Source: Clostridia bacterium (GTDB taxonomy: Bacteria; Bacillota; Clostridia; Christensenellales; CAG-138). From it: a DNA stretch of 60,031 nt. Location of the stretch: contig DAOPJM010000009.1 in NCBI GenBank assembly GCA_035399665.1, positions 1 through 60,031 of the forward strand, written 5' to 3'. Shown here piece by piece: positions 9,604 to 49,441 of this stretch. A program made the translations under genes and the position numbers. Below the pieces are notes generated by a model that saw only the letters and a list, made by a program, of their open reading frames with translations, did no database searches and was not told the DNA's origin. Position 1 is the stretch's first letter. Each line of letters opens with the position of its first letter.

Positions 9604-10727
9604 TGGCGACGACGAAACCAAAGCTCAAAATCAATATTACAAAGCTCGTTCTGCTGTTGATTATAGCGGCGTTGCTTCTTGTTGCTTTGGGCCTTGGCGT
9701 CTATGCTTTGATCGGAGATAAGAAACAGGTCATCACCTCACAAAAGCTGCCGATCGATGCACGAACAGATCTCGTTATCGGCAAGGGCAGGGTTTCATAC
9801 ACCACCGATACAGAGCTGGTTGAATACCTCCTGGACGGGAGCGGGGTGCAGCGCAGCGCGCTCGGGGCCGCCGTTGACGGCTATGCCGTAAGCGGCAAAA
9901 CCGCTGTCGTATACTTGGACTCAATGGTTCAGATAAGAGGCATGTCCCCCCTTCAAATGACTGGTGATGTACGCGGAGTGCGCTGCTATGACAGCTATGT
10001 CGCGATACTGCGCACGGGAGCTTCGGGAAGCGACAGCGTTATCGTTGTAGACACCCAAACAGGCGAGTCGCAGGACGCACTGAACTTCGCTAAGAATACC
10101 GTGACGGGCTTTGGCTTTATAACGGAAGGCGAGACAATTTATATGTGGGTCGCAGCAACCTCCGTTGAACAGAGTACTCCTGTTTGCACACTCCAGCTGT
10201 ACGACGTTGGCAACAATGGAGCCTTGCTCTATTTCCCTGTGTTTTACGATCAACTTATAGAGAAGCTCTATATCACCGACAACAGCATTTTCATTGTCGG
10301 CACACAGGACATTGTTCGATACGAGCTTGGCGGAAGCCGTGAGTCGTATCGCGTCCGTATATATGGCAACTCAGTAGTAGACATGACCGTTAAGGATAAG
10401 ATGGCATACTACCTGCTTATGCCAGAAAACCAATCGTCAAATTCGACCATAAGGCTCATGATGATATCTGAAGGCGATACTTCGGGCGAGTCTACCATGA
10501 CCATACATATAAACGAGGAAATAGTAGGCGCTTTCCTGCAAGAGGGCGTCATTCGCATTCTGTCCGCAAACTATTTGTACTCGTATTCATACAAGGGCAA
10601 GGCGCAGTTTACGATAGAAACCGATGTGAGCTGTATAGCGGCTTTCAAGGTGGACGACAGCAGAATAATCATTACGAGCGAAAACGCTTGCTATATCTGT
10701 AAGGTAGAGGAGAAGGTCGCATGGTAA
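9603..10727 (+). CDS. Membrane-anchored beta-rich protein (DUF5711-like)
   Basis: Single N-terminal TM then repeated beta-strand pattern; position directly upstream of cvpA; family call tentative. Confidence 0.55.
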   Translation: MATTKPKLKINITKLVLLLIIAALLLVALGLGVYALIGDKKQVITSQKLPIDARTDLVIGKGRVSYTTDTELVEYLLDGSGVQRSALGAAVDGYAVSGKTAVVYLDSMVQIRGMSPLQMTGDVRGVRCYDSYVAILRTGASGSDSVIVVDTQTGESQDALNFAKNTVTGFGFITEGETIYMWVAATSVEQSTPVCTLQLYDVGNNGALLYFPVFYDQLIEKLYITDNSIFIVGTQDIVRYELGGSRESYRVRIYGNSVVDMTVKDKMAYYLLMPENQSSNSTIRLMMISEGDTSGESTMTIHINEEIVGAFLQEGVIRILSANYLYSYSYKGKAQFTIETDVSCIAAFKVDDSRIIITSENACYICKVEEKVAW

Positions 10728-11422
10728 CGGCGGTTGTGTTGCTAATAATATGTCTTGCTTTGCTTGCGGGCTACTACCGAGGGGTTATTTACTCACTTGT
10801 GTCTCTTGGAATAACCATACTCTCACTTGCGCTTGCGCTTATTTGTATCCCTCTTGTATCAAACACAGTAAAGGGCAACGAAGAACTGTACGACATGATG
10901 CTCTACTACTTCGAGGGATACGAATACATCAATAACACAGCGGTCGAGCTTGTTCATGCCAATGTTACCGAGATTAACGAGGAGGAGCTTGACGAGGTCA
11001 TAACGAACGCGGATATGCCCCTGCCGTTCGGCAGAGCTATCAAGAAGAATATCAGCAATAAGGCGTATGCCGCCGATGGGATAGAAACCCTTGGAGACTA
11101 TTTCAACCAAACCATTGTGGACGTTGTAATAAACATACTGTCGCTGCTGCTGCTGTTCGTTATATTCCGCATATCGTTCGGGCTTATCCTGCACATCGCG
11201 GATTATGGGGTAGGCGGGCTTCCCGTGCTTGCAAAGCTGGATGTACCCATTTCCTTGGGGATAGGCTTCCTGCACGGTATAATGCTGACCTTCATTGTGT
11301 TCATGCTCGTACCAATCGCTTTGACGGTACTTCCGGCTCTTGGTCGCTTTATTGAAGGCTCGGCGATTGGCGAGTTCTTTTACAGGCTGAATCCTTTTAT
11401 TTGGCTTGTACGGACTACATAG
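10721..11422 (+). CDS. CvpA family membrane protein
   Basis: LLAGYYRGVIYSLVSL N-terminal pattern, four TM segments, C-terminal IEGSAIGEFFYRLNP. Confidence 0.7.
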   Translation: MVTAVVLLIICLALLAGYYRGVIYSLVSLGITILSLALALICIPLVSNTVKGNEELYDMMLYYFEGYEYINNTAVELVHANVTEINEEELDEVITNADMPLPFGRAIKKNISNKAYAADGIETLGDYFNQTIVDVVINILSLLLLFVIFRISFGLILHIADYGVGGLPVLAKLDVPISLGIGFLHGIMLTFIVFMLVPIALTVLPALGRFIEGSAIGEFFYRLNPFIWLVRTT

Positions 11423-11495
11423 GATCTATGGCTTTATCACGGCTTTCCGCCAATAATGCGGTTCCCCGTGTTTTATGCGAAAGGAGGAGAGGTTT

Positions 11496-12824
11496 TTGCG
11501 AAGAACATTTCGCGGCGGAGTGCATCCGCTGCATAAAATCCATGAGGGCAAACCTCTGGCAATGGACAAGAGGATTGAGGTCTTTATGCCCGATCATGTT
11601 GTCATTCCAATGGGTATGCACCTTGGGGCGCCGTCGACGCCCTGCGTAAACAAGGGGGATAGGGTACTCACGGGACAGATCATTGGTACGCCTAACGGAT
11701 TTTTGGGCGTGCCCGTACACGCGAGCATCTCGGGGACGGTCTCGGCCGTCGAGCCCCGCCAACAGCTCAAAGCGCATCCTGAGATGTGCGTATGCATTGA
11801 CTCCGATGGTCAGGACGAGTGGGTGGAGCTTACGCCCGTCGGAGCGGTTGAGTCTGTCGAGCCTGCCGCCATCATGAAGGCGGTAAGGGAAGCGGGCATA
11901 TGCGGCATGGGCGGCGCGGCATTTCCGGCTGGCGTCAAGCTTGCGATACCCGAGGGCAAAAAAGCCGAGGTAGTCATTATCAACGGCTCCGAATGCGAAC
12001 CATACCTTACCTGTGACCACAGGGTGATGATCGAGGAACCAGAGCGCGTAGTAAATGGTCTGCGTCTTTTGATGCGGGCAGTAGGCGTGACCAAGGGCTA
12101 TATCGCCATTGAGGACAACAAGCCGCAATGCGTAGAGTCCATGAGGCTCGCGGCAAACGAATACCACAGCATTAGCGTAGTTGCTCTCAAGACGAAGTAT
12201 CCGCAGGGCGGTGAGAAGCAGCTTATCGAGGTCATAACCGGTAAGCAGATTCCGCAAAAGAAGCTTCCCATCGACGTCGGAGCTTTGGTGTTCAATATTC
12301 AGACCGCGGCGGCGGTCGCTGACGCGGTACTGCTTGGCAAGCCGTTGATTGAGCGTATTACGACGGTCACCGGAGCGGTAGGGGAGCCTAAGAACTTTAG
12401 ACTGAGAATAGGCACTGAGTTTGGAGACGCAATCGACGCTGCGGGCGGTTACAGTGAAACCTTTAAGAAGCTCATAGCGGGCGGACCCATGACGGGCTTC
12501 TGCTGTCCGAACGACCACATCTCCGTTCAGAAGGCCTCCGGCGGCATACTGCTGTTTGATGAGGAAATGGCAAAGCAGGACGAAGAAGGTCCTTGCATTC
12601 GCTGCGCAAAGTGCGTATCGGCCTGCCCGATCGGTCTGCTGCCTTACAGGCTCAAGTTTGACGTGGAACAACGCAACTGGGCAAGAGCGAAGGTGGACGG
12701 AGCCATGGACTGCATAGCCTGCGGCGTCTGCGCCTACACCTGCCCCGCAAATCGCCATATCACTTCAAGCATTAAGGTTGCCAAGGAAATGATAACAGCC
12801 GAGGAAAGGAGGCAGAAGAAATGA
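11496..12824 (+). CDS. rnfC: Rnf complex subunit C
   Basis: TFRGGVHP, HLGAPSTP, AGICGMGGAAFP, NGSECEPYLTCDHR, two CxxCxxCxxxCP clusters; AAGGAGG RBS favours TTG start at 11496. Confidence 0.95.
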   Translation: MRRTFRGGVHPLHKIHEGKPLAMDKRIEVFMPDHVVIPMGMHLGAPSTPCVNKGDRVLTGQIIGTPNGFLGVPVHASISGTVSAVEPRQQLKAHPEMCVCIDSDGQDEWVELTPVGAVESVEPAAIMKAVREAGICGMGGAAFPAGVKLAIPEGKKAEVVIINGSECEPYLTCDHRVMIEEPERVVNGLRLLMRAVGVTKGYIAIEDNKPQCVESMRLAANEYHSISVVALKTKYPQGGEKQLIEVITGKQIPQKKLPIDVGALVFNIQTAAAVADAVLLGKPLIERITTVTGAVGEPKNFRLRIGTEFGDAIDAAGGYSETFKKLIAGGPMTGFCCPNDHISVQKASGGILLFDEEMAKQDEEGPCIRCAKCVSACPIGLLPYRLKFDVEQRNWARAKVDGAMDCIACGVCAYTCPANRHITSSIKVAKEMITAEERRQKK

Positions 12825-13735
12825 ACTTTACCGTTTCAACCGCCCCGCACATTCACAGTGAACAAACTACCCAGCGCCTGATGCTCAAGGTCATAGTTGC
12901 ATTGGCGCCCTGCGTAGCTGCTGCCATATACTTCTTTGGCTGGCGCGCACTTGTGATTGATGTTATTGCTGTTGTGTCCTGCGTGTTCTTTGAGTTCTTA
13001 GCTCAAAAGATAGCCAAACGTCCTATCACCATCAATGACCTTTCGGCCGTAGTCACAGGTATAATACTTGCGATGAACATGCCCGCAACCGCGACTTGGT
13101 GGATGGTAGTGATAGGAAGCGCTGTCGCTATACTGCTTGTAAAGCAGCTGTTCGGCGGCATTGGCTGCAACTTCCTCAATCCCGCTTTGGCGGCAAGAGC
13201 CGTCCTGTTGACTTCTTGGCCGTCACGCATGACCAACTTCACCCTGCCCACAGGCTTCGCAGGAGACGCCGTTTCATCGGCTACTCCGCTTGCAGGATAT
13301 GAGGCCAAGACCATACAGCTGCTTTTGGGCAATGTTCCGGGCAGCATAGGTGAGGTCTGCAAGATTGCCATACTGATTGGCGGCGCTTACCTCTTGATTG
13401 CCAAGGTTATAAAATGGTACGTCCCGGTATCATTTATCGGCACGTTCATGATATTCTCTTGGATATTCGGGCAAAACCCCATCACTGCGGTCTTGAGCGG
13501 CGGCATACTCTTTGGCGCCGTGTTCATGGCAACCGACTACGTCACTAACCCGATGACCGCTGTCGGCAAGCTCATATTCGGCTTTGGATGCGGACTTATT
13601 GTTGCTATACTTCGTAACTTTACGCCTATGGCGGAGGGCGTCACCTACGCTATTTTGATTATGAACGTAGTTACGCCGCTTATTGACAAGTATATCAAGC
13701 CCAAGGTGTACGGGGAGGTGAAGGCTCATGCGTAA
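12821..13735 (+). CDS. rnfD: Rnf complex subunit D
   Basis: STAPHIH, KQLFGGIGCNFLNPA, FMN site DAVSSATPL, MATDYVTNP. Confidence 0.95.
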   Translation: MNFTVSTAPHIHSEQTTQRLMLKVIVALAPCVAAAIYFFGWRALVIDVIAVVSCVFFEFLAQKIAKRPITINDLSAVVTGIILAMNMPATATWWMVVIGSAVAILLVKQLFGGIGCNFLNPALAARAVLLTSWPSRMTNFTLPTGFAGDAVSSATPLAGYEAKTIQLLLGNVPGSIGEVCKIAILIGGAYLLIAKVIKWYVPVSFIGTFMIFSWIFGQNPITAVLSGGILFGAVFMATDYVTNPMTAVGKLIFGFGCGLIVAILRNFTPMAEGVTYAILIMNVVTPLIDKYIKPKVYGEVKAHA

Positions 13736-14270
13736 GGAAAGCATACTTGTACTCGGGCTGAAGCTCCTTGCGATTGCAATCATCGCGGGGCTTGCACTCG
13801 GGGTTGTCAACGCAATCACCAAGGAACCCATCGCGGAACAAACGCGTTTGGCTGCGGACGAAGCAAGGCGTTCCGTACTTCCGCTTGCCGCCGAGTTTAC
13901 CCAGATAGAGGGCAGTGACATATATGAGGGTAAAGACTCATCGAACAATATCGTAGGCTACACCCTTGCGGGCATTACCAATGGTTACGGCGGAGAAATT
14001 GAAGTCACCGTGGGAATCGATCTTGAGGGAATTATAACAGGCGTCAGCGTCGGCGGAGCAAACTTCTCCGAGACCGCAGGCCTTGGAGCGAAAACCAAGA
14101 CCGACCCGACATTTAGGCAGCAGTTCATCGGACTGTCAGGCACAATAGCCTTGAAAAAGGACGGGGGACAGATTGACGCCGTGACAAGCGCGACGATAAG
14201 CAGCAGAGCCGTGACCAATGAGGTTGAGGCTTTGAGGGCGGAGCTTGTCGCATATTTGGGAGGTAAGTAA
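13728..14270 (+). CDS. rnfG: Rnf complex subunit G
   Basis: N-terminal TM, GYGGEI, SETAGLG, FMN site IDAVTSATISS. Confidence 0.93.
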   Translation: MRKESILVLGLKLLAIAIIAGLALGVVNAITKEPIAEQTRLAADEARRSVLPLAAEFTQIEGSDIYEGKDSSNNIVGYTLAGITNGYGGEIEVTVGIDLEGIITGVSVGGANFSETAGLGAKTKTDPTFRQQFIGLSGTIALKKDGGQIDAVTSATISSRAVTNEVEALRAELVAYLGGK

Positions 14271-14271
14271 A

Positions 14272-14901
14272 ATGGAAAAGAAAAAACTAAGTTCCGTTTT
14301 CTTCAACGGCATAATAACTGAGAACCCAACGTTCCGACTTGTTCTCGGCACTTGCCCCACAATGGCGGTAACGACGAGCGCGATAAACGGCGTTGGCATG
14401 GGGCTTGCCGCGACCTTCGTTCTACTGGGCAGCAACATAGTTATATCGCTCCTGCGCAACTTCATACCCGACAAGATAAGGATTCCCGCTTTCATCGTGG
14501 TTATCTGCACCTTCGTTACCGTGGTACAGATGCTGCTGCAGGCGTTCATTCCTTCGCTCTATGAGTCGCTTGGCATGTTCATACCGCTCATAGTTGTCAA
14601 CTGTATCATCCTTGCCAGAGCTGAAGCATTTGCTTCCAAGAACGGCGTAGGAGCTTCGGCGGTTGATGGTCTTGGAATGGGCTTAGGCTTTACGCTTGCG
14701 ATAACCATCATGGGCGCAATCCGCGAGATAATCGGAAACGGCAGCGTGTTCGGGCTTCAGCTTTTCGGAGCTTCCTATGAGCCAATGCTGCTTGTCATAA
14801 TGCCCGCGGGCGGATTCATCGTATACGGTCTGTTGCTTTGGTGCATGAACCTTATCGTCGCGAAGGCCGAATCAAAGAGGAATAAGGAGGTGGCCAAGTA
14901 A
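14272..14901 (+). CDS. rnfE: Rnf complex subunit E
   Basis: ENPTFRLVLGTCPTMAVT, FIPLIVVNCIILARAE; GGAGG RBS before ATG 14272. Confidence 0.95.
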   Translation: MEKKKLSSVFFNGIITENPTFRLVLGTCPTMAVTTSAINGVGMGLAATFVLLGSNIVISLLRNFIPDKIRIPAFIVVICTFVTVVQMLLQAFIPSLYESLGMFIPLIVVNCIILARAEAFASKNGVGASAVDGLGMGLGFTLAITIMGAIREIIGNGSVFGLQLFGASYEPMLLVIMPAGGFIVYGLLLWCMNLIVAKAESKRNKEVAK

Positions 14902-15524
14902 TGCAGATAACAATAGGAAACATACTGCTGTTCATGGTCAGCTGCGTGTTGGCCAACAACTTCATATTTTCACGCTTCTTGGGCTGCTGCCCCTTCCTTG
15001 GGGTATCGAGCAAGGTTGAGACCGCGTTCGGCATGGGCATGGCGGTCACTTTCGTTATGGCCTTGGCGTCGCTGTTCTGCTATGCGATTAACAAGTGGGT
15101 GCTTATGCCTTTAGGCATTGAGTACCTGCAAACCATAGCCTTCATACTCGTCATCGCCGCTCTGGTGCAATGCGTGGAGATGTTCCTTAAAAAGTCGTCG
15201 CCTTCGCTGTATAACGCGCTCGGCATATACCTTCCGCTTATAACCACCAACTGCGCCGTCTTGGGCGTCTGCATACTCAATGTCGATTACGCGGCGCCTG
15301 AGTTTGCCAACGGACTTTTCTGGTCGGTCATGAACGGTGTGTTCGGAGCGATAGGCTTCCTTGTCGCCATAGTGCTTATGGCGGGTATAAGGGAACGCTT
15401 AGAGGACGCAAACATCCCGAAGTCCCTTAAGGGCTTCCCAATCTCGCTCATCACGGCGGGACTGATGAGCATAGCCTTCATGGGCTTTGCAAGTCTGTCC
15501 GGTCTGCTGTCGGGATTGCAGTAA
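14901..15524 (+). CDS. rnfA: Rnf complex subunit A
   Basis: NNFIFSRFLGCCPFLGVS, GIYLPLITTNCAVLG, GIRERL. Confidence 0.95.
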   Translation: MQITIGNILLFMVSCVLANNFIFSRFLGCCPFLGVSSKVETAFGMGMAVTFVMALASLFCYAINKWVLMPLGIEYLQTIAFILVIAALVQCVEMFLKKSSPSLYNALGIYLPLITTNCAVLGVCILNVDYAAPEFANGLFWSVMNGVFGAIGFLVAIVLMAGIRERLEDANIPKSLKGFPISLITAGLMSIAFMGFASLSGLLSGLQ

Positions 15525-15535
15525 GGAGGTAAGCT

Positions 15536-16363
15536 ATGGATTTTCTTCCCATTGTCTACGCAGTCGCCATTCTGGGCGGTCTTGGTGTAATATTCGGCCT
15601 TCTCTTGGGCTTTGTCGGAAAGAAATTTGAAGTCAAAGTCGATGAGAGGGTGACGAGAGTTCGCGCTTGCCTCGGCGGAGCCAACTGCGGTGCGTGCGGC
15701 TTTCCGGGTTGTGACGGCTTTGCGCAAGCCGTTGTTGATGGCAAAGCTCCTGTTACCGGCTGCACTGCGGGCGGTAAAAAGACTGCCGATGCGATAGGTG
15801 ATATTATGGGCGTTAAGGCTGAAGTGGGCGAGAGGCTTGTGGCGAGGGTTCGCTGCAACGGTACGCTTGATAACGTCTCATCGCGCTATGATTACGCGGG
15901 TGTGAAGAGCTGCCGAGTCGCGGCCCAGCTTGCGGGCGGTTCCAAGGCTTGCAGCTTTGCCTGCTTGGGCTTTGGCGATTGCGTCCATGTATGCAAGTTC
16001 GACAGCATCCATGTCGTAAACGGTGTGGCGGTCGCAAACGACGACACCTGCACAGGCTGCGGAGCTTGCGTGGAGCAATGCCCAAGAAGCATTATCGCCT
16101 TGATTCCCAAAAATCGTACCATCGTCGTAAAATGCCGCAACATCGAAGTCGGAAAGATTGCAAGAGCGCAATGTAAGAGCGCATGTATCGGCTGCAAGAT
16201 GTGCGAGAGAACCTGTCCCTCCGATGCCGTTCATGTTGTTAACGGCGTTGCGGAGATAGATCCCGCCAAATGTACCCGCTGCGGCGCATGCGTTGTAAAG
16301 TGCCCCACCAAGTGCATCTTCAACTTCTTTGAAGGTCTGCAAGAGAGCTACGATTGGGAATAA
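15536..16363 (+). CDS. rnfB: Rnf complex subunit B (polyferredoxin type)
   Basis: N-terminal TM, GANCGACGFPGC, several ferredoxin Cys clusters. Confidence 0.95.
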   Translation: MDFLPIVYAVAILGGLGVIFGLLLGFVGKKFEVKVDERVTRVRACLGGANCGACGFPGCDGFAQAVVDGKAPVTGCTAGGKKTADAIGDIMGVKAEVGERLVARVRCNGTLDNVSSRYDYAGVKSCRVAAQLAGGSKACSFACLGFGDCVHVCKFDSIHVVNGVAVANDDTCTGCGACVEQCPRSIIALIPKNRTIVVKCRNIEVGKIARAQCKSACIGCKMCERTCPSDAVHVVNGVAEIDPAKCTRCGACVVKCPTKCIFNFFEGLQESYDWE

Positions 16364-36745: not shown

Positions 36746-37873
36746 TTAAGCCTCAAAGAGGCTCAATTCAGTTTCAAGTGAGAAGAGCTGTATCAACTCG
36801 CCATTGATACGAACCTTGATGTTGGCGCCATATGGGAAGCCCATACGGTATTCCTGTGGCAGGTTGATAATCGGCAGGCGTAGAATAGCATCAGTGCCGA
36901 GAGCGTCGGTGTGCAGGTACAGCTCGCTGCCCATCATTTCGCATACATCTACGGTTGCGGGAATGGTGTTGGGCTGGTTGCCGACATGATCAATCTCGGT
37001 ATGCTCAGGGCGAATGCCCATAGTGACCTTCTGAGTGGTTACGCCGTTGTTTCGTAAAATCTGCTGTTTTGTCTCAGGCAGATCTATGCGATAGCCCGAA
37101 AGGTCAAGATAATAGCTTTTGCCGTCACAAATCAGATCCGCATCGAAGAAGTTCATTTGCGGTGTGCCAATGAAGCCCGCGACAAACTTGTTGTGAGGAC
37201 GATCGAAAACATCCGTAGGCGTGCCAATTTGCTGGACAAAACCGTCCTTCATGATGACGATACGATCACCTAAGGTCATGGCCTCTGTCTGGTCATGAGT
37301 AACATAGATGAAGGTGGTATCAAGGCGGTGTCTGAGCTTGATGATTTCGGCACGCATCTGATTACGAAGCTTAGCATCAAGGTTGGAGAGCGGTTCATCC
37401 ATGAGGAATACCTGAGGATCGCGAACGATAGCTCTTCCGATTGCGACACGTTGACGCTGACCGCCTGACAAAGCCTTGGGCTTCCTGTCAAGCAGCTCGG
37501 TGATGCCGAGTATTTCAGCCGCCGCGTTAACCTTTTCTTTGATTTCCGCCTTGGGAACCTTGCGCAGCTTAAGCGCGAAAGCCATATTCTCGAAAACAGT
37601 CATGTGAGGATAGAGCGCGTAGTTTTGAAAAACCATTGCGATATCTCTGTCCTTGGGGGGAACGTCATTAACGAGACGGTCACCGATGTACAGTTCGCCA
37701 TCGGTGATCTCCTCAAGGCCTGCCACCATACGAAGCGTAGTGGACTTACCGCAGCCTGAAGGACCTACCAGTACGATGAATTCCTTGTCCGCGATTTCAA
37801 GATTGAAATCGTGTACGGCTACGACGTCTTTGTCATAGACCTTCTTGAGATTCCTGAGTGATAAAGTTGCCAT
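36746..37873 (-). CDS. msmX: Multi-sugar ABC importer ATPase (MsmX/MalK/UgpC family)
   Basis: [44 protein letters not shown]-terminus. Confidence 0.93.
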
Positions 37874-38074
37874 TTGTCTCGACTCTAATGACGCAGCATC
37901 CGCTTTGCGTCACCTTGCAGGCGCGTGCTTTATCGCGCTTGCATTACGACAGGTCTCCACACTGCCGCACCGCGAGTCATGCGGGACTTCCATCCTTTCA
38001 TTTTACGCAGGTCGCGGCAAGGAAGTGGAGTGCCGCGAGGCGCTTAATTACGGGTACTATATATAACAATACCC
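37874..38074 (-). ncRNA. Structured ~200-nt 5' leader of msmX (candidate cis-regulatory RNA)
   Basis: At least five hairpins and mutually exclusive long-range pairings between the predicted +1 (~38074) and the ATG (37873); details in findings. Confidence 0.55.
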
Positions 38075-38764: not shown

Positions 38765-38857
38765 TGGCGGAGAAAGTGGGATTTGAACCCACGCACCGGT
38801 CAACCCAGTCTACTCCCTTAGCAGGGGAGCCCCTTATAGCCACTTGGGTATTTCTCC
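38765..38857 (-). tRNA. tRNA-Ser (GCT)
   Basis: Acceptor GGAGAAA/TTTCTCC, anticodon loop CTGCTAA, long variable arm, T-loop TTCAAAT, encoded CCA. Confidence 0.95.
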
Positions 38858-38870
38858 GTATTTAACGATT

Positions 38871-38958
38871 TGGCGGAGATGGTAGGATTTGAACCCACGG
38901 ATGTTTTCACATCAACGGTTTTCAAGACCGCCTCCTTAAACCCCTCGGACACATCTCC
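38871..38958 (-). tRNA. tRNA-Ser (TGA)
   Basis: Acceptor GGAGATG/CATCTCC, anticodon loop TTGAAAA region, long variable arm, T-loop TTCAAAT, encoded CCA. Confidence 0.95.
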
Positions 38959-40302: not shown

Positions 40303-40313
40303 TTTGCACCCAC

Positions 40314-40529
40314 AACCGGCTGACCTGATCTTTGACCCCACACTCGCCGACAGGAGGGTTCGCTCATAAGCTTTCGCTCCCCACTACTGCCCCTCTCGAT
40401 GTTGCCATCGGTCGGACTTACATCTAAGCCGCACCATGCTCACGGAAAATTCTTCCGCTTATGTGGATCGTTTAGCCTGCGACTGGCATCGACTAATGTC
40501 CGTTAAGACATGCAACCACAGACCCGATT
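40314..40529 (-). ncRNA. raiA motif RNA
   Basis: Contains the blocks I recall from clostridial raiA RNAs: GTCGATGCCAGTCGCAGGC.AAACGATCCAC.TAAG, GAGCATGGTGCGGCTTAGA.GTAAGTCC, AGTAGTG, GCGAA.C, GGCGAGTGTGGGGTCAAAGA.CAGGTCA; ends can pair (AATCGG/CCGGTT). Boundaries approximate. Confidence 0.9.
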
Positions 40530-40543
40530 CCGGATACCACTAC

Positions 40544-41199: not shown

Positions 41200-44100
41200 C
41201 TAAACGTTCTGACGCTTTTTGCGCATTATGACCACAATGACAGCGGCAACGACAATCGCCGCAGCAATCGCCATAATGATAATTATCCACGGTGAGAGAA
41301 CTGTCCCGCTGTCCTCGGCCGTTTCGGAAGCCGCAGTTGTATCTACCCTAAGCTCATGATAGGCGCCCTTTACAAGCACCATCGCGGAAATAGCGCTTAC
41401 GCTGACACTTCCCGAGACGCTTTCTATGGGCTTAGTACCGGCCTGAACGTCGTTAACATAAACATCCCACTCGCCTTCGGGCAGGGCTATTTCTATCGCC
41501 TCGCGATTGGCGTTGTACACAACGAACAGCGCTTCGGCCATCTCTCCGTTAGGGCTATTCTCTATCGTATACGCAACCACATTCGCAGGAAGATCGCTAA
41601 CGAAGCTTAGGTTGTCCGATATCTCCTTTGTAGTGGTGAGCCGCAGCGCGGAATGTTCCTTGCGGAATGCTATCAAGCCCTTGTAGTACTCGTATACGTC
41701 AGAGTACTGATCCAAGCGGTTCCACCTTAATGCATTGGTGTAGTCCGAAGACTTGTAGCTGTTTGAGTCGAAGCCTCCGTTCAATGCAGGTTTGCTCCTC
41801 AAAATCTCCTCGCCCGCTTGCATAAATGGTATGCCCTGACAAGTCTGAATGATAGCCGCGGCAAGCTTGTTCATGCGTATACGCGTTGCTTCATCGTCGT
41901 CTGTGTTCGATGATGCTATCTTATCCCACAACGAGAGATTGTCATGAGCCGAGCAGTAGCTTATGCATTGCAGGGGACTGCCCGCCCAATAGATGCTTGA
42001 ATAATTGACCTTGCTGTAATCCACCTGCGAATGCAAGGTTGCCGCGACTACGCCAAACTTTATAGTCTCCTCGAGACCCGCAGCGCCGGTGACAAAGCCC
42101 TTTTCCGTGGAGTTGAACACGCTTCCCTTGATTCCGTCGCGGATATCGTCCGAGAACGCGGCAATGCGGTTTAGAGCCATGGTGTTGGCTTTGAGCGCAC
42201 GTTCGCTTTCATCAAGCGGGGAAGATGAGGAGGTCCAGCCCTCGCCATAAACAAGTATTGTCGGGTCGATAACATCTAAAGCTTCACGCACAGCGTTCAT
42301 GGTTTCGATATCGTGTATACCCATTAAGTCAAAGCGGAAGCCGTCTATGTGATACTCAGTTGCCCAATAGACCACCGAATCGACGATGTACTTACGCACC
42401 ATGGCTCGTTCGGAGGCCGTCTCATTTCCGCAGCCCGAAGCGTTGGAATAAGCTCCGTCCACCATACGGTAGTAGTATTCAGGCACGGTAAGACTGAACC
42501 AAGAATCCTCGGTAGCAGAAGTGTGATTGTACACCACGTCCATGACCACACGAATTCCGTTCTCATGCAGGGCCTGAACCATGCGTTTGAACTCGTATAT
42601 GCGTACCTCGCCGGCATATGGGTTAGTGGAATACGAGCCCTCAGGTACATTATAGTTCTTAGGGTCGTAACCCCAGTTGAATTGCTCCTCATCAAGCTTA
42701 GTCTCGTCTATGGTCGCGAAGTCGAACACAGGCAAAAGATGAACATGGGTTATTCCAAGTTCCTTCAGGTGATCCACGCCGGTTGCCGTACCGCCGCTCG
42801 TAGTGGTTCCGCTTTCGGTAAACGCAAGGTACTTGCCCTTGTAGGTCATATTGCCGGCAGGATCGATTGAGAAATCACGAACGTGCAGCTCGTAAATCTC
42901 GGCGTCGGTGCTGTTGACAAATGTAGGTTTTTTATCCTTGTCCCATCCATCCGGATCGGTGGAGTTAAGGTCTATCACCATACCCCTGTCGCCGTTGATG
43001 CCCACAGCCTTTGCGTAGACGTCAACGGTTTCATTTGTCTTGCCGTTTAACGTTACAAGATAGGTATAGTAAGTTCCGCCAAGATTGCCGTCATAGATCA
43101 AAGCCCAAGTTCCGTTGTCGGACTTTTCCATGGGAATGGTCTCGATTAGGTTATCACCGTCGCCGTTCTCATAAAGCGCGACATTGACTGTTGTGGCGGT
43201 AGGTGCCCAAACTCTAAAGCAGGTGTTGTCCTTAAGTATGACTGCTCCAAGATCATTACCTAAATAGCTGTATGCGGCTTCGAACTCATCCGTATCGAAC
43301 AGCTCGGACATTGAAACCGATATCTCGCCATAGACTGCGTTTTGCAGCGTATAGCCTTTGCCCATGTCTATGCCGTTCTCAAGGGTTGCTGTAATAGCGG
43401 CGGAGTTGTCTGCGGCTTGCTTTATGGTTTTGATCTCTGTCACGCTGCCATTGTCCGCGCTTAATAGGAATTCATCTGCTTTGACGTCATCCGGCGCGAC
43501 GGTCAAGACAAAGCTCACGGTGTTGAGGTCAATGAACTTCGCTGAGAGAAACTTGGGAGTGAGGTCAACGTCCTCCAAAGCGTAGTAAACGTTGCTGTCA
43601 CCCGTCACCAGCCAAATGTTGAGGGTATCGTCAACCGCATACTCCACTGACATAAACCTGTCGTCCGCAACATCCTTCTGCTCCCATTCGTTAAGGCGGA
43701 CGATGAAGCCCAAGCTTTCGACCCCCGTCATATCCTCTATACCGAGGCTGATTACCGCTCCGAAATCATCATATGAGCTTATGCCATAAGCCGCCCCGTC
43801 CTGTCCTTCCTTCCACAGCCAAAGGTTCCAGCCATCGTAATTGCCGTCATAGCGGCGATAGTGGACATTGACCTTGAACGCGCCCTCAATGTTGGCGGAT
43901 TCCATATTTTCCTGTTGAACGGCTTCATAGTCGTAAGGCGTACACCCTTCGGGAGTTGTATAAGCGAACTCAGTAACACCGCTGTAAATCCATATCTCGG
44001 TTCGTTCGCTCGTTAAGCTGATGAACCTGTCCTGCTCGACGTCCTTCTTCTCCCAATCGTTGAGCCTAACTATGACGCCAACCTTACTCACGGAAGTATC

Positions 44101-44322
44101 ACAGGTGTATACGGCGACTTTTCCGAAGTCGTCATCGTCGGAGAAGCTTATCTGCTTACCTGATGCGCCGTCGTTCCAGAGCCAGAGATTCCAGCCGGTA
44201 TAATCAGCGTCGTCGCGGTGATAGTGAACTATAATGAGATTTTTGTTATCCGCAAATGATACCGCCGTGAAAAGCGGTACCATAAGCAGAACAACGAGTA
44301 TAGCGGCGATGAAACGTTTCAT
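41200..44322 (-). CDS. pulA: Surface-anchored type I pullulanase (2x CBM41, CBM48, GH13)
   Basis: Signal peptide; two VHY.R.D..Y.GWNLWLW repeats; FRVWAPTA; NWGYDP, DVVYNH, GFRFDLMG, YGEGW, HDN; C-terminal TM + RKKR. Confidence 0.93.
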   Translation of the reverse strand: MKRFIAAILVVLLMVPLFTAVSFADNKNLIIVHYHRDDADYTGWNLWLWNDGASGKQISFSDDDDFGKVAVYTCDTSVSKVGVIVRLNDWEKKDVEQDRFISLTSERTEIWIYSGVTEFAYTTPEGCTPYDYEAVQQENMESANIEGAFKVNVHYRRYDGNYDGWNLWLWKEGQDGAAYGISSYDDFGAVISLGIEDMTGVESLGFIVRLNEWEQKDVADDRFMSVEYAVDDTLNIWLVTGDSNVYYALEDVDLTPKFLSAKFIDLNTVSFVLTVAPDDVKADEFLLSADNGSVTEIKTIKQAADNSAAITATLENGIDMGKGYTLQNAVYGEISVSMSELFDTDEFEAAYSYLGNDLGAVILKDNTCFRVWAPTATTVNVALYENGDGDNLIETIPMEKSDNGTWALIYDGNLGGTYYTYLVTLNGKTNETVDVYAKAVGINGDRGMVIDLNSTDPDGWDKDKKPTFVNSTDAEIYELHVRDFSIDPAGNMTYKGKYLAFTESGTTTSGGTATGVDHLKELGITHVHLLPVFDFATIDETKLDEEQFNWGYDPKNYNVPEGSYSTNPYAGEVRIYEFKRMVQALHENGIRVVMDVVYNHTSATEDSWFSLTVPEYYYRMVDGAYSNASGCGNETASERAMVRKYIVDSVVYWATEYHIDGFRFDLMGIHDIETMNAVREALDVIDPTILVYGEGWTSSSSPLDESERALKANTMALNRIAAFSDDIRDGIKGSVFNSTEKGFVTGAAGLEETIKFGVVAATLHSQVDYSKVNYSSIYWAGSPLQCISYCSAHDNLSLWDKIASSNTDDDEATRIRMNKLAAAIIQTCQGIPFMQAGEEILRSKPALNGGFDSNSYKSSDYTNALRWNRLDQYSDVYEYYKGLIAFRKEHSALRLTTTKEISDNLSFVSDLPANVVAYTIENSPNGEMAEALFVVYNANREAIEIALPEGEWDVYVNDVQAGTKPIESVSGSVSVSAISAMVLVKGAYHELRVDTTAASETAEDSGTVLSPWIIIIMAIAAAIVVAAVIVVIMRKKRQNV

Positions 44323-44345: not shown

Positions 44346-45902
44346 TCAAATGTGATTTTTGTGTTCTATCAGCGAGGTCCCCGTCATGGCTTCCGGCTTT
44401 TTAACACCCATAAGCTCAAGCAGGGTAGGGGCAAGGTCGCTGAGCCTGCCGCCTTCACGAAGCGTAACATTCCTTCGGGCGTCGTCAACCAATATGCAGG
44501 GTACGGGGTTGGTTGTGTGCGCTGTAAACGGCACGTTCTCCGCCTTGTCCCACATCAGTTCACAGTTACCGTGGTCAGCTGTAATAATGCAGCTTCCGCC
44601 GTTGCGTCTGATGGCGTCAACGACCTTTTCGACGCATTGATCTACCGCATGAACGGCGGCGGTCGCGGCTTCCATCACACCCGTATGGCCTACCATATCA
44701 GGGTTGGCAAAGTTCAGTATCATGAGATCATACTTGCCGGAATCAATCCTGCGCACAGCTTCATCCGCTACTTCATAAGCGCTCATCTCGGGCTTGAGGT
44801 CATAGGTCGCTACCTTAGGAGAAGGGATCAACGCCCTGTCCTCACCTGCGTTGGGCGCTTCAACTCCGCCGTTGAAGAAGAAGGTAACGTGCGCGTACTT
44901 CTCGGTCTCGGCAATCCTAAGCTGGGTCTTGCCGAGACTTGCGACGTACTCGCCCAAGGTATCATTCAAGCTGCGCGGCGGAAAGGCAATACTCAGCTTA
45001 TCAGCGAACGACTTGTCATACTGCGTCATCGAGACATAGCAGAGCGGGAAAAGACCGTTCCTGCGCTCAAAACCGTCGAAGTCGGGGAAGAGATACGCTC
45101 TGGTGATTTCACGCGCTCTGTCGGGACGGAAGTTGAAGAATATTACGCTGTCATTGGCCGAGATAACCGCGGTGGGTTTGCCATTATGTGTAATGACGGT
45201 AGGCTGAACGAACTCATCAGTCTCTCCTCTGTCATAAGCGGCCTGCATGGCGTCTTCAGCGCTGTCTGCGTTGAAACCCTCCCCGTAGGTCATGGCGGCG
45301 TATGCTCGCTGAACACGCTCAAAACGGTTATCCCTGTCCATAGCGTAATACCTGCCAATGACTGTTGCTATGCTGCCGCAGCCAATCTCGGTTAACTTCT
45401 CATCCAGCTTCTGCACATAGCCCTTTCCACTTGAGGGCGGAACATCTCTGCCGTCCATAAAGCAATGGACATATACCTTGTCAAGACCGCTGTCCTTTGC
45501 AAGCTTTACCAAAGCATAGACATGGTCCAAGTGGCTGTGAACGCCGCCGTCCGAGCAAAGACCCATAAGGTGCAGAGCGGTGCCATGCTCCCTGCAATTG
45601 CTGATTGCCTTCAGGAAGGCGGGATTTGTGAAGAAATCCCCATCCCTAATGGCTTTTGTGATGCGAGTGAAGTCCTGATACACGATACGTCCGGCTCCGA
45701 TGTTCATATGTCCAACCTCGGAGTTGCCCATCTGTCCGTCGGGAAGCCCTACGTCCATACCGCTTGCCGCGATGAGCGTGTGGGGATAATCGTCCCAAAG
45801 CCTTTTAACGTTCTTAACGCCATCGGTTAAGATGGCGTTATAGTCGGCTTCAAGTCTGTAACCAAAGCCGTCAAGGATAATCAGTGCTGTGAGGGTCTTC
45901 AT
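44346..45902 (-). CDS. gpmI: 2,3-bisphosphoglycerate-independent phosphoglycerate mutase
   Basis: LIILDGFG, QMGNSEVGH, GGVHSH, GRYYAMDRD, ETEKYAHVT, NPDMVGH, TADHGN. Confidence 0.97.
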   Translation of the reverse strand: MKTLTALIILDGFGYRLEADYNAILTDGVKNVKRLWDDYPHTLIAASGMDVGLPDGQMGNSEVGHMNIGAGRIVYQDFTRITKAIRDGDFFTNPAFLKAISNCREHGTALHLMGLCSDGGVHSHLDHVYALVKLAKDSGLDKVYVHCFMDGRDVPPSSGKGYVQKLDEKLTEIGCGSIATVIGRYYAMDRDNRFERVQRAYAAMTYGEGFNADSAEDAMQAAYDRGETDEFVQPTVITHNGKPTAVISANDSVIFFNFRPDRAREITRAYLFPDFDGFERRNGLFPLCYVSMTQYDKSFADKLSIAFPPRSLNDTLGEYVASLGKTQLRIAETEKYAHVTFFFNGGVEAPNAGEDRALIPSPKVATYDLKPEMSAYEVADEAVRRIDSGKYDLMILNFANPDMVGHTGVMEAATAAVHAVDQCVEKVVDAIRRNGGSCIITADHGNCELMWDKAENVPFTAHTTNPVPCILVDDARRNVTLREGGRLSDLAPTLLELMGVKKPEAMTGTSLIEHKNHI

Positions 45903-46648
45903 TTGTAACAGACCACCTTGGAGAAGTTATCGGCCTTCAAGGAAGCACCGCCGATAAGACCGCCGTCAATCTCATCCATAGACATTAGCTCCGCAACGTT
46001 CTTCGGGTTCATGCTTCCGCCGTACTGAATGCGAAGCATTTCAGCTTCTGTCTTGCCATACATCGCCGCGACAGCGTTTCTGACCACACCTATGGTTCTG
46101 TTGGCTTCCTCGGCCGTGGCGGTTTTGCCTGTACCGATAGCCCAAATTGGCTCATATGCTACAACCAGCTTGGTAAGCTCGTTTGCGCTCATTCCCTCAA
46201 GAGCCGCAGTTATCTGCATAGAAACAACCTTATCGGCAATACCTTCCTCACGCTGCTCCAAGGTTTCCCCGATGCAGATGATGGGAATCAGTCCGCCATT
46301 TAACGCGGCTCTTGCGCGAAGATTGACAGTTTTGTCCGTTTCGCCAAAGTACTGTCTGCGCTCGCTGTGTCCGACTATGACGTACTCTGCGCCAATCTCC
46401 TTGAGCATGTCAACGGAGACTTCTCCAGTGTATGCGCCCGACGCCGCCCAATGCACATTTTGTGCGCCAAGATGCACGTTGCTGCCCTTCAACAGGGGAG
46501 CGACATATCCTAAATCCACGAAGGGCGGACACACTACTACGTCACAGGGGGCGTTCTTTACCAAGGGGATAAGCTCATCAACGAGCTTTACCGCTTCCTT
46601 GGGGGTCAAGTTCATTTTCCAGTTTCCGGCTATAATAGGTCTTCTCAT
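45899..46648 (-). CDS. tpiA: Triosephosphate isomerase
   Basis: IAGNWKM, GAYTGE, GHSERR, AYEPIWAIGTG, QYGGS, GGASL; alternative ATG at 46654. Confidence 0.98.
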   Translation of the reverse strand: MRRPIIAGNWKMNLTPKEAVKLVDELIPLVKNAPCDVVVCPPFVDLGYVAPLLKGSNVHLGAQNVHWAASGAYTGEVSVDMLKEIGAEYVIVGHSERRQYFGETDKTVNLRARAALNGGLIPIICIGETLEQREEGIADKVVSMQITAALEGMSANELTKLVVAYEPIWAIGTGKTATAEEANRTIGVVRNAVAAMYGKTEAEMLRIQYGGSMNPKNVAELMSMDEIDGGLIGGASLKADNFSKVVCYK

Positions 46649-46678
46649 AATCATTTCCTCCGATTGTCTGTCGATTTA

Positions 46679-47866
46679 CTACTTATCGTTCAGCGCGGCG
46701 ATGCCGGGCAGGGTCTTGCCCTCGAGAAACTCGAGCGATGCTCCGCCGCCTGTTGATATATGGGTCATGCGATCGGCATAGCCGAGCTTCTTCACAGCGG
46801 AAGATGAGTCGCCGCCGCCGATAATGGTCACGCCCTTGCACTCCGCGCAGGCTTTTGCAACGCCTTCGGTGCCTTTTGCAAAGTTGGAGAACTCAAACAC
46901 ACCCATGGGACCGTTCCATACCACTGTTCCGGCGTTTAGAATAGTCTTGCTGAACAGCTCCACAGTCTTTTCGCCGATGTCAAGGCCCATCCAAGCTTCA
47001 GGAATGGCGTCGGCGTCTACGGTCTTGAAGGCGGCGTCGTTTTCGAATCTGTCCGCAACCACGATATCGACGGGCAAAAGCAGAGCAACGCCCTTTTCCT
47101 TGGCCTGTTCGATAAGACTTGCGGCAAGCTCAACGTTTTCCGCGTCCAGCATGGATGAACCAATCTCATAGCCCTTCGCCTTCAAGAAGGTAAAGGCCAT
47201 GCCTCCGCCGATGATGAGCGAGTCACACTTGGACAGCAGATTGGTGATGACGCCGATCTTGTCCGCTACCTTGGCTCCGCCCAAAATCGCCACAAACGGT
47301 CTGTCGGGGTCTTCAAGAGCCTTGCCCATGATGCTTAGCTCTTTGCCGATGAGAAAGCCCGAGACTGCGGGAAGGTATGCCGCAACGCCTGCCGTGGAAG
47401 CGTGTGCGCGATGAACCGTTCCGAAAGCGTCGGAAACATAGACGTCCGCAAGCGAGGCGAGCTGACGCGCAAACTCAGGATCGTTTTCGGTTTCACCCTT
47501 CTCAAAGCGAACATTCTCGAGCATGACTATCTCGCCGTCCTTCATATCGTCGATAGCGGCCCTTGCGCTTTCGCCTACTACATCGTCTGCCATCCAGACA
47601 TTCACATCGGGCAGCAGCTCTGAGAGCCTCGCTGCAGCGGGAGCTACGGAATACTTGGGGTCAGGTTTACCCTTGGGTCTGCCAAGGTGAGTTGCGAGGA
47701 TGACCTTCGCACCCTGCTCAAGCAAATACTTGATTGTGGGTAGCGCCGCGACGATACGCGTGTCGTCTGCGACCTGCAAATCGGAAGTCAAGGGGACGTT
47801 GAAGTCAACTCTGACAAGTACTTTCTTGCCTTTGACGTCGATGTCGGTTACTGTCTTTTTAGCCAT
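46679..47866 (-). CDS. pgk: Phosphoglycerate kinase
   Basis: [54 protein letters not shown]. Confidence 0.98.
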
Positions 47867-47891
47867 AATGATTATCTCCTTTCGACCATAT

Positions 47892-48326
47892 TCATGGTCT
47901 GCTAAAATACTCCTTTAGTAATTCTATCCCCGTACCGTCAACACAGCTTATGGCGAATATCGGGTTTGCTCCGGACATCCTTAAATTGTCCTTTGCGTCC
48001 TCAACATTGCGCACACTTGCCGCAAGGTCGATCTTGGTCACAACTCCAATTACGGGTCTTGCGAAGATACCGGCGATAAGGGGAGGGATACTTATCTGCG
48101 CGTCTGTACAGTCAAGCAATATCATGACGATATCGCAGTCCATCGCGGTGACGGTCAGCGCCTTAAAGAAGGGCTTACGCTCAAGGTATTCGCCCGGGGT
48201 GTCTATGCAGTCTCCGATAAGCTCTACCGACTGCGTTTTGTGCGGTGTCCCCGCAGCGCCGCTCAACAGGTATGCGAGTGTGGTTTTGCCGCTGCCGCTT
48301 TTGCCTATAATCAAGGCACGCTTCAT
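47892..48326 (-). CDS. eutP: EutP/PduV family small GTPase-like protein
   Basis: [41 protein letters not shown]; ATGA overlap with eutS. Confidence 0.88.
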
Positions 48327-48670
48327 GATCTGGTGACCTTGCACGGCGTAAAGCCCAAGGTGTTTTCAAGCATATCCACTACGGCGCGAACCGAGGCCTC
48401 CACCGCGGAAGTGGAACCGCTCAGCACAAGCGATCCTGAAAACCTGTCAACAAAGACTATCTCGACCTGAGCCGCCTTGACAGCGGTATCCGCGCTGATT
48501 ATAGCAACCTCACTTGGCGTTATGGTGAGAATCCCCAAGGCTCCGTATGCATCGCCCACCATGCCCAGCTTGCGATACAGCGAGGCATCGGGGTTAGGGA
48601 TTATGTGAGCAATTGTCACCTGCTTTCCGGGGACATACTCCTGAATGATACGCTGCTTGCTTTCGTCCAT
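48323..48670 (-). CDS. eutS: EutS/PduU family circularly permuted BMC shell protein
   Basis: KQRIIQEYVPGKQVTIAHII, ALGILTITPSE..IISAD.AVKAA, DRFSGSLV. Confidence 0.92.
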   Translation of the reverse strand: MDESKQRIIQEYVPGKQVTIAHIIPNPDASLYRKLGMVGDAYGALGILTITPSEVAIISADTAVKAAQVEIVFVDRFSGSLVLSGSTSAVEASVRAVVDMLENTLGFTPCKVTRS

Positions 48671-48671
48671 A

Positions 48672-49361
48672 TTAAACCTCATATATTGTTCGCTCTTGGG
48701 CTATCTCGGCATTGAAAACGCCCGTTTCACGCAGGATAGCTGCTTCATCGCTTTCGGCTCCGCTTATGTGAGTACACAAAAGCTTTTTCACCTGTGCGCG
48801 CTCGGCAAGCTTACCAGCCTCTGTCGGAGACATATGGTTTATGCCTGTCGTCGTCTTTGCGTTCGTATCCGCAAGCAGAATATCAGCGCCAAAGGCTTCA
48901 GGGACAAGACCGTCAAAATAGGAAGTATCCGAGGTGTAGCAGACGGATTTTCCCTCGTCGTTTGTGAGCTTTACTCCGTAGCACTCCACAGTGTGATGAA
49001 CCGTAAAGAGCTTCACAGTGATACCGCCTATGCTCATTTTCAACCCGTCCTCTGCCGGAATGTGCCTAAACAGCAGGGCGTCCTTTTGCGCGGGGGAGAT
49101 GAGCAAAGGTTTCTCCTTGCCGAATTGCCCTTGATCCATGGCATATCTTGCTATGGCAAGGTCCGCACAATGGTCGGCATGGAGGTGGGTCACGATAATG
49201 GCGGACAGATCGGAGTATCTATGGAACTCAAGAAGACGCGAAAAAGTTCCCGACCCCAATTCAAGCAGGATGACGGTTTCGCCGTCCTCAATGATGTAAC
49301 CGGAGCAGGAACCGCCCGCCTTCGGGTAAGGCCCATATTTGCCTAATACTGTAAGCTTCAT
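48672..49361 (-). CDS. Metallo-beta-lactamase fold hydrolase (RNase Z/YhfI-like)
   Basis: LTVLG..GPYP.AG..CSGY, THLHADH, HH, YTSDT, THI. Confidence 0.85.
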   Translation of the reverse strand: MKLTVLGKYGPYPKAGGSCSGYIIEDGETVILLELGSGTFSRLLEFHRYSDLSAIIVTHLHADHCADLAIARYAMDQGQFGKEKPLLISPAQKDALLFRHIPAEDGLKMSIGGITVKLFTVHHTVECYGVKLTNDEGKSVCYTSDTSYFDGLVPEAFGADILLADTNAKTTTGINHMSPTEAGKLAERAQVKKLLCTHISGAESDEAAILRETGVFNAEIAQERTIYEV

Positions 49362-49441
49362 TACCACACCTCATTCCCCCAAAAGGAAGCTTCCGTGACA
49401 AGTCAATGAATACGCTTAGGGTAAGCGATTAACAATGACAC

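Follow-up and report, generated by a model that had tools for sequence, protein, structure and literature searches.

The 60,031-nucleotide stretch of DNA analyzed here (the window) is the entire contig C9 of a Clostridia bacterium whose 2.09-Mb genome is 97.9% complete and distributed over 97 contigs. Its minus strand carries a string of genes in the order ruvC-ruvA-ruvB, a gene for a 236-amino-acid coiled-coil protein, a gene for a metallo-β-lactamase (MBL)-fold hydrolase, eutS, eutP, pgk, tpiA, and gpmI. Two members of this string, eutS and eutP, belong to families known from bacterial microcompartments (BMCs) and are the subject of this study. A previous reading of the sequence alone regarded them as an orphan pair and offered two explanations, either a satellite serving a distant BMC or a shell-independent hexamer/GTPase module, possibly linked to the hydrolase or to glycolytic enzymes. 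In BMC genomics, satellite loci are both defined and common (Sutter et al. 2021, PMC8217296), with CcmK3/K4 and the "EUT module" satellites of the SPU3, SPU6, and HO locus types as examples (Axen et al. 2014; Sutter et al. 2021), and 57% of satellite-like loci have a PduV/EutP gene beside a shell gene (Axen et al. 2014). Separate regulation or tuning of the shell has been proposed as their rationale (Axen et al. 2014; Sutter et al. 2021). Here, we use whole-genome searches and comparisons within the family and order to identify the partner of the window's pair.

Gene organization of the locus

All genes and features of the string are given on the minus strand. The gene for the MBL-fold hydrolase (48672..49367; PF12706, 67 bits) is followed by eutS (48323..48670), assigned from profiles and solved structures as encoding a 115-amino-acid, circularly permuted BMC-H protein of the EutS/PduU type, and by eutP (47892..48326), whose 144-amino-acid product is assigned by profiles to the PduV/EutP family of small P-loop GTPase-like proteins. 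Homologues and alignment to EutS/PduU structures place the eutS start at ATG 48670, 1 nt behind the MBL stop codon; the first in-frame ATG, at 48682, lies upstream and overlaps the MBL gene. For eutP, the orthologue-backed start is ATG 48326, which forms an ATGA overlap with the eutS stop, and a longer open reading frame is possible from GTG 48344. A 25-nt spacer (47867..47891), which carries AGGAGA as the pgk ribosome-binding site, separates eutP from pgk (46679..47866; PF00162, 554 bits), the first gene of pgk-tpiA-gpmI. The context genes tpiA (45899..46654) and gpmI (44346..45902) follow.

A hairpin with the sequence GACCAT-N4-ATGGTC and a 6-bp stem (47884..47899) lies across the TGA stop codon of eutP. 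No T-run follows it, the terminator scan does not report it, and it is not a terminator. Between the MBL start and pgk, a scan for consensus signals detected neither promoter-like nor terminator-like sites. The sequence-only reading had described the same three junctions, a sole 6-bp hairpin around the eutP stop without a U-tract, and no other shell gene in the 60 kb; direct reading of the sequence, the terminator scan, and genome-wide hidden Markov model (HMM) searches, which detected no further PF00936, PF03319, or PF10662-family gene on C9, agree with it on each point.

Features of EutS and EutP

The EutS protein contains a single BMC domain (PF00936, cut-off 24.5 bits), which scored 51.1 bits and, in the genome-wide search, 51.8 bits. 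With the EutS profile NF012012, the protein reaches 115 bits, under the cut-off of 123. Full-length alignments were obtained to EutS from Clostridioides difficile (4AXI, E=2e-40), PduU (3CGI, E=2e-33), and Escherichia coli EutS (3I96), with E-values ranging from 2e-40 to 1e-30. The PF00936 match begins at residue 48 and spans profile positions 1-61 only, while the N-terminal 45 residues align end to end with the permuted hexamers 4AXI, 3CGI, and 3I96, including the IQEYVPGKQ strand. In crystal structures, the RIIQEYVPGKQ strand at the EutS N-terminus forms the central barrel (PMC3483176). The N-terminal motif RIIQEYVPGKQVT is conserved among orthologues, and the shell-interface and β-barrel motifs are fully conserved. 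By sequence, the protein has every feature of a permuted PduU/EutS hexamer (BMC-Hp) and is predicted to form hexamers that tile into a shell. We also considered the glycine that corresponds to G39 of E. coli EutS, a determinant of the bent hexamer (PMC3483176), as a hint of shell-independent assembly. It is present here, but it is common throughout the order, including copies within BMC loci, and was rejected as a marker.

EutP matches PF10662 with 153 bits (cut-off 21) and TIGR02528 with 143.2 bits, over the cut-off of 138.35. With NF012011, the equivalog profile of enterobacterial EutP, it reaches 59 bits, far under the cut-off of 258. The G1, G3, and G4 (TKID) nucleotide-binding motifs are intact and invariant in six orthologues, and a central block of about 50 residues is nearly invariant across orthologues. 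An AlphaFold2 model (pLDDT 86.8) finds its best Foldseek matches in the Protein Data Bank among EngB/YsxC, Ras, Rho, and Rab GTPases, with TM scores of 0.6-0.69; a sequence search for a solved PduV/EutP structure found none. EutP is accordingly classified as a member of the PduV/EutP family, with a modeled Ras-like P-loop fold and a G4-type TKID motif, and is a predicted GTPase. In all 31 loci collected from the family and order samples described below, the EutS gene directly precedes the EutP gene. This invariant order fits the published interaction, in which the PduU barrel is the docking site of PduV at the outer shell face, as concluded from co-evolution, docking, and two-hybrid analyses (PMC4315436).

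A complete microcompartment locus on another contig

The whole-genome HMM searches uncovered four further BMC domains and three EutN/CcmL-type pentamer genes, all of them on contig C25. Pfam annotation places them in one compact locus (L012; C25 ~8705-16164, plus strand). Its genes encode, in order, a DeoC/LacD-family aldolase, PduL, a BMC-P protein, an acylating aldehyde dehydrogenase, an RnfC/Nuo51-type (PduS-like) flavo-FeS protein, a tandem BMC-T protein with a PduT-like pore cysteine, BMC-H, BMC-P, BMC-H, and BMC-P proteins, and a second, divergent DeoC-like protein. The two BMC-H genes are near-identical, and BMC-P genes total three. At the N-termini of DeoC, PduL, and the aldehyde dehydrogenase, the three that were inspected, a short amphipathic helix is followed by a low-complexity linker, resembling encapsulation peptides. 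The first DeoC additionally carries a Cys-rich C-terminal tail, HCLHCGNCTNGGSSCP. The second DeoC-like gene (C25 15427-16164) is 35% identical to the first at the protein level and falls under Pfam thresholds.

With the SPU4 loci of Firmicutes, the C25 locus shares the pfam01791 DeoC aldolase, the phosphotransacylase, and the aldehyde dehydrogenase, each with an encapsulation-peptide-like N-terminal extension, as well as the BMC-P triplet, two near-identical BMC-H genes, and the PduS/PduT pair. It differs from them by the additional, divergent DeoC-like gene with which it ends at the 3' side and by its gaps: no gene for pfam02502 RpiB, triosephosphate isomerase (TIM), or eut_hyp was found in the locus. 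An alcohol dehydrogenase gene is likewise missing there. The genome's sole PF02502 (RpiB) gene is on C4, and the sole TIM gene seen is tpiA on C9, whereas in SPU4 loci of other Firmicutes, TIM is usually encoded within the locus, as is eut_hyp (Sutter et al. 2021). Since the signature RpiB gene sits elsewhere and neither TIM nor eut_hyp is present, we refer to the locus only as SPU4-like. By gene content, it is a predicted SPU4-like sugar-phosphate metabolosome and not a full SPU4 member.

Whole-genome PF00936 and PF10662 searches detected neither an EutS/PduU tile nor a PduV/EutP protein in the C25 locus; the genome contains one EutS-type and one PF10662-family match, both on C9. The search for shell genes that the sequence-only reading had proposed thus returned a complete BMC locus without eutS or eutP of its own, an outcome that this reading had itself named as a refutation. 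Under these circumstances, the label "orphan" no longer applies, and the first of the two original explanations, a satellite of a distant BMC, is supported. The ethanolamine enzyme EutB (PF06751) was not found in this genome, nor in four other carriers of the pair (G000, G023, G030, G032, and G037 in total; 92-98% complete), with E. coli as a positive control. The missing EutB in five carriers implies that the pair no longer serves ethanolamine catabolism.

Distribution of the pair and of shell genes

We surveyed 101 genomes drawn evenly from the same family and 301 genomes from the order. EutP homologues occur in 12 of the 101 family genomes and fall into two groups. Five genomes (G013, G033, G040, G053, and G083) carry eutS-eutP at the very end of a full BMC locus, as its final gene pair. 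The other seven have a pgk-linked pair and represent four genera, g1, g30, g32, and g37 (G000 and G023; G030; G032 and G069; G037 and G073), with the shared string ruvCAB-coiled-coil-[MBL]-eutS-eutP-pgk-tpiA-gpmI. Each of the seven has a single EutP and a single EutS-type match, both at the pgk site. The other outcome that the sequence-only reading had named as refuting it, a synteny unique to this strain, does not apply.

The pair's distribution follows that of the main locus. BMC-type DeoC, 71-75% identical to the C25 protein and with the N-terminal extension, was found in G023, G030, G032, G037, G069, G073, and G093, i.e., in all six other carriers of the pair and in G093, an 80%-complete assembly that lacks the whole pgk region and is uninformative on the pair. 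The pair thus occurs only together with a C25-type locus. In G069, both lie on the same contig, 43 kb apart. Genus g30 provides a direct contrast. While G030 has the pair as well as the BMC locus, its congeners G067 and G091 (96-97% complete) yielded neither an EutP match nor a BMC-domain gene, and their DeoC match is only the short housekeeping form, not the BMC type. In both, ruvCAB-MBL-pgk-tpiA-gpmI runs uninterrupted with an empty junction between MBL and pgk. The MBL-pgk spacer of these empty sites is recognizable downstream of eutP in G030, from which it follows that the pair was inserted right behind the MBL stop codon.

Other shell genes accompany EutP throughout the samples. All 12 EutP-containing family genomes have additional PF00936 genes, and all 21 EutP-containing genomes of the order sample have PF03319, compared to 48 of 301 overall; among the approximately 400 genomes sampled, none has EutP without other shell genes.

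Two further arrangements of shell genes were observed. In G003, G052, G061, and G098 (genera g4 and g20), an N-terminally extended DeoC with 52-54% identity adjoins BMC-H genes in SPU-like loci and neither EutS nor EutP is present; DeoC-type BMCs can accordingly do without the accessory pair. G086, a complete single-contig genome, and G055 each contain a lone canonical BMC-H (~95 bits) as their sole PF00936 match and have no EutP match. Both are candidates for true orphan shell genes.

The MBL neighbor and transcription

A single copy of the MBL gene is present in 67 of the 101 family genomes. In at least 12 genomes without a pgk-linked pair, among them G013 and G033, whose eutS-eutP genes sit in EUT2 loci on other contigs, it is the immediate upstream neighbor of pgk(-tpiA), and its link to the pair is for this reason regarded as incidental. 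In genus g37 (L027 in G037 and L028 in G073), the MBL gene is absent from the ruvB-pgk interval and eutS-eutP are retained. Among the carriers, MBL proteins are only 40-46% identical, compared to 68-82% for the pair. Judged by this gene order, MBL-pgk is the older arrangement, and the coupling between the hydrolase gene and eutS is a by-product of the insertion. The previously considered functional link to the hydrolase loses its footing, as the MBL gene is an ancestral pgk neighbor and is dispensed with in a genus that keeps the pair. The pair had also been described as sitting where gap normally precedes pgk. This does not hold for the present family, in which gap is not the usual gene before pgk: the gap gene of this genome is on contig C19, and the ancestral upstream neighbor of pgk in the family is the MBL gene.

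Distances between the genes are short in g1, g30, and g32, where the pair overlaps MBL or follows it after 1-9 nt and is separated from pgk by 10-51 nt. Combined with the lack of consensus signals, these distances suggest a single putative MBL-eutS-eutP-pgk-tpiA-gpmI transcript in the three genera. The arrangement differs in g37: G073 has a 251-nt eutP-pgk spacer with a promoter-like TTGACA-17-TACAAT, and in G037 a promoter-like sequence precedes eutS, with an eutP-pgk spacer of at least 41 nt and an uncertain pgk start. Thus, the pair's co-transcription with pgk is not required throughout the carrier genera.

Origin and selection

To trace the origin of the pair, maximum-likelihood trees were calculated from 31 EutP and 31 EutS sequences. 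The pgk-linked EutP copies form one clade (support 98/99), as do the EutS copies (support 82/48). This clade groups with copies from the family's EUT2 loci and is separate from those of the order's other families, which are 33-38% identical. Its stem branch is long for EutP (0.93 substitutions per site) and short for EutS (0.2). The nearest sampled relatives of the pair are located at the 3' end of EUT2 loci and share 61-68% identity for EutS and 42-50% for EutP. Trees and gene order are most simply explained if the two genes were transferred once, as a unit, out of an EUT2-type locus and into the junction between MBL and pgk.

Across the four genera, identity to the window copies amounts to 75-82% for EutS and 68-74% for EutP, in the range of the neighboring glycolytic enzymes (Pgk 72-76%, Tpi 66-68%, GpmI 69-76%). 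The reading frames of the pair are intact in all seven carrier genomes, and dN/dS lies at 0.05-0.22 where dS is unsaturated, which excludes half of the pairwise comparisons. These values indicate strong purifying selection on the pair since its insertion.

Interpretation and alternatives

We propose, with a probability of roughly 80%, that eutS-eutP is a two-gene satellite of the genome's single BMC, encoded on C25. In this organelle, DeoC would cleave deoxyribose-5-phosphate into glyceraldehyde-3-phosphate plus acetaldehyde, and the latter would be converted via acetyl-CoA to acetyl-phosphate. By analogy to PduU, EutS would join the C25-encoded shell as a minor, pore-occluded hexamer with its barrel facing the cytoplasm, and the small GTPase-like EutP would dock on this cytosolic face in the way proposed for PduV. 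There, it might help to position or partition the organelles, or couple them to the cytoplasm otherwise. An acetate-kinase activity, as is reported for Salmonella EutP, would likewise suit an organelle that ends in acetyl-phosphate. Given its operon position, the pair would be expressed along with the genes of lower glycolysis and not with the main locus. Within the satellite reading, we give this mechanism of a shell tile with a docked GTPase about even odds.

Several observations weigh against the proposal. The carrier genera are related, and the co-occurrence in seven of seven genomes therefore corresponds to few independent events; the contrast within g30 is the only clear additional event and is itself partly independent. 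The Pgk tree, with two well-supported forks, is too poorly resolved to distinguish losses from lateral spread. SPU-like loci in g4 and g20 do without any EutS or EutP, showing that the pair is not a general requirement, and SPU4 loci are generally without satellites in the catalog of Sutter et al. 2021. Co-transcription with MBL and pgk is deduced from spacing and the lack of consensus signals only. Both the incorporation of EutS into the C25 shell and the binding of EutP to EutS are inferred by analogy. In Salmonella, deletion of pduV has no growth phenotype, and the same preprint assigns a permeability role to PduU (bioRxiv 10.64898/2026.07.29.741414). Positioning or partition of the organelle along filaments by PduV has been proposed (cited in PMC4207490), yet with a pduV deletion strain growing like wild type, the basis for such a role is weak even in the model system.

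Among the alternatives, the one that fares best retains the satellite and changes the role of its second gene: EutP would mainly act as an acetate kinase that converts the acetyl-phosphate formed by PduL to acetate and ATP, and EutS would be a mere tile or anchor. We consider this unlikely. Moore and Escalante-Semerena are said to have assigned, in 2016, acetate-kinase activity to EutP and EutQ of Salmonella, and such an activity would suit a BMC with acetyl-phosphate as end product. The presence of PduL in the main locus makes acetyl-phosphate the expected product, and with eutP adjoining pgk, the neighborhood would group two ATP-yielding kinases of deoxyribose-5-phosphate breakdown. The enterobacterial orthologue behind NF012011 also bears the NCBIfam name "ethanolamine utilization acetate kinase EutP", though the match of the present protein to that profile is the distant one described above. 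Against this assignment stand the predicted Ras/EngB-like GTPase fold with its G4-type TKID and the 251-nt eutP-pgk spacer, with its promoter-like site, in one of the two genomes from g37 (G073). A canonical ackA on contig C21 (486 bits) further speaks against it and rules out EutP as the genome's only acetate kinase.

A second alternative assigns meaning to the genomic address. Here, the adaptor and GTPase would be wired into pgk-tpiA-gpmI such that the docking tile couples the organelle, physically or kinetically, to lower glycolysis and ATP formation. The BMC would export glyceraldehyde-3-phosphate and acetyl-phosphate, its locus lacks its own TIM gene, and tpiA is located two genes away from the pair. 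If the address is functional, co-expression with lower glycolysis would provide the organelle at all times with an outward docking tile; EutP might, for example, be a surface-bound acetate kinase, or EutS/EutP might recruit Pgk, Tpi, or GpmI. We regard this as improbable.

Still less probable is the second of the two original explanations, a hexamer/GTPase module co-opted for a task outside any BMC that works independently of a shell with the MBL hydrolase or glycolytic enzymes. The short, operon-like distances to MBL and pgk in g1, g30, and g32, the pgk-side position conserved in four genera, and the long EutP stem branch, which could mark a functional shift, are compatible with it. However, every carrier has a complete BMC locus, EutP is always found with shell genes (12 of 12 and 21 of 21 genomes), and the pair and the BMC locus are jointly missing from the g30 congeners that keep MBL-pgk. 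In addition, the MBL gene is the older pgk neighbor and is absent from the g37 locus, and the pair and pgk have separate promoter-like sequences in g37, so that co-transcription is not conserved. Finally, the EutS motifs that have remained fully conserved are those of the shell interface and the barrel. The last alternative, a functionless relic consisting of the stranded and drifting final two genes of a lost EUT2 locus, has the 3'-terminal position of its closest relatives within the same family and the lack of EutB in five carriers in its favor, but is effectively refuted by the selection signal: intact frames in seven genomes of four genera, identity on a par with that of Pgk, Tpi, and GpmI, low dN/dS, and a nearly invariant central EutP block.

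Comparison with known systems

As a proposed satellite of the C25 BMC, the pair resembles those described by Axen et al. and Sutter et al. in that a shell gene lies distal from a main locus holding BMC-H and BMC-P genes. In line with the definition of Sutter et al. 2021, the pair resides on C9, and the main locus on C25 contains BMC-T, two BMC-H, and three BMC-P genes. In the present genome and the six other carriers alike, the main locus lacks what the satellite supplies. Unlike usual satellites, the pair is not free-standing and is embedded in the housekeeping string MBL-pgk-tpiA-gpmI.

The closest counterparts in composition are PduU-PduV of the Salmonella and Citrobacter pdu loci and EutS-EutP of EUT loci, in which both families recur with order and coupling unchanged. 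In contrast to these, the pair lies outside such a locus, its client would be a DeoC-aldolase BMC, and its EutP is only 33-50% identical to copies inside BMC loci. The likely source resembles the EUT2 loci, with the order EutB-EutC-EutL-AldDH-EutM-EutT-PduL-EutN-PduS-PduT-EutS-EutP and an ANTAR/histidine-kinase regulator. We checked this assignment for the locus in G040, which encodes EutB, EutC, an EutL-like protein, AldDH, BMC-H, cobalamin adenosyltransferase, PduL, BMC-P, PduS, PduT, EutS, and EutP as well as an ANTAR response regulator and a histidine kinase. In the carriers, by contrast, the pair is detached, and EutB, the only other EUT2 gene tested, was not found in five of them; the present genome, as one of the five, is thereby set apart from EUT-type genomes. 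The system is thus of a known kind, a satellite locus, and its particular features are the SPU4-like DeoC client and a lower-glycolysis address that has been kept in four genera.

Other features of the window

Directly downstream of gpmI, the minus strand encodes a secreted pullulanase/glycogen-debranching-like protein of 1040 amino acids (41200-44322) with a signal peptide and a C-terminal hydrophobic anchor, as read from the translation. Downstream of this gene lies a full-length raiA RNA motif (40311-40532, minus strand; RF03072, 187 bits against a gathering score of 101). The minus strand further carries a malK-I RNA motif (RF03069, 139 bits) as well as two tRNA genes next to each other (37868-38048 and 38768-38958).

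Significance

The results remove an apparent anomaly, as shell and GTPase genes among housekeeping genes can be understood as a normal satellite of a BMC encoded elsewhere. They also provide a clean and datable case in which an EutS-EutP couple appears to have moved as a unit from an EUT2 locus to an SPU4-like, DeoC-based BMC. This move supports the view of PduU/EutS and PduV/EutP as a portable accessory module that is independent of the substrate. An SPU4-like BMC with a conserved satellite was undescribed for SPU4 in the 2021 catalog. With BMC accessory genes apparently under the control of a glycolytic operon, these bacteria would offer a natural test of the idea that satellites serve separate regulation.

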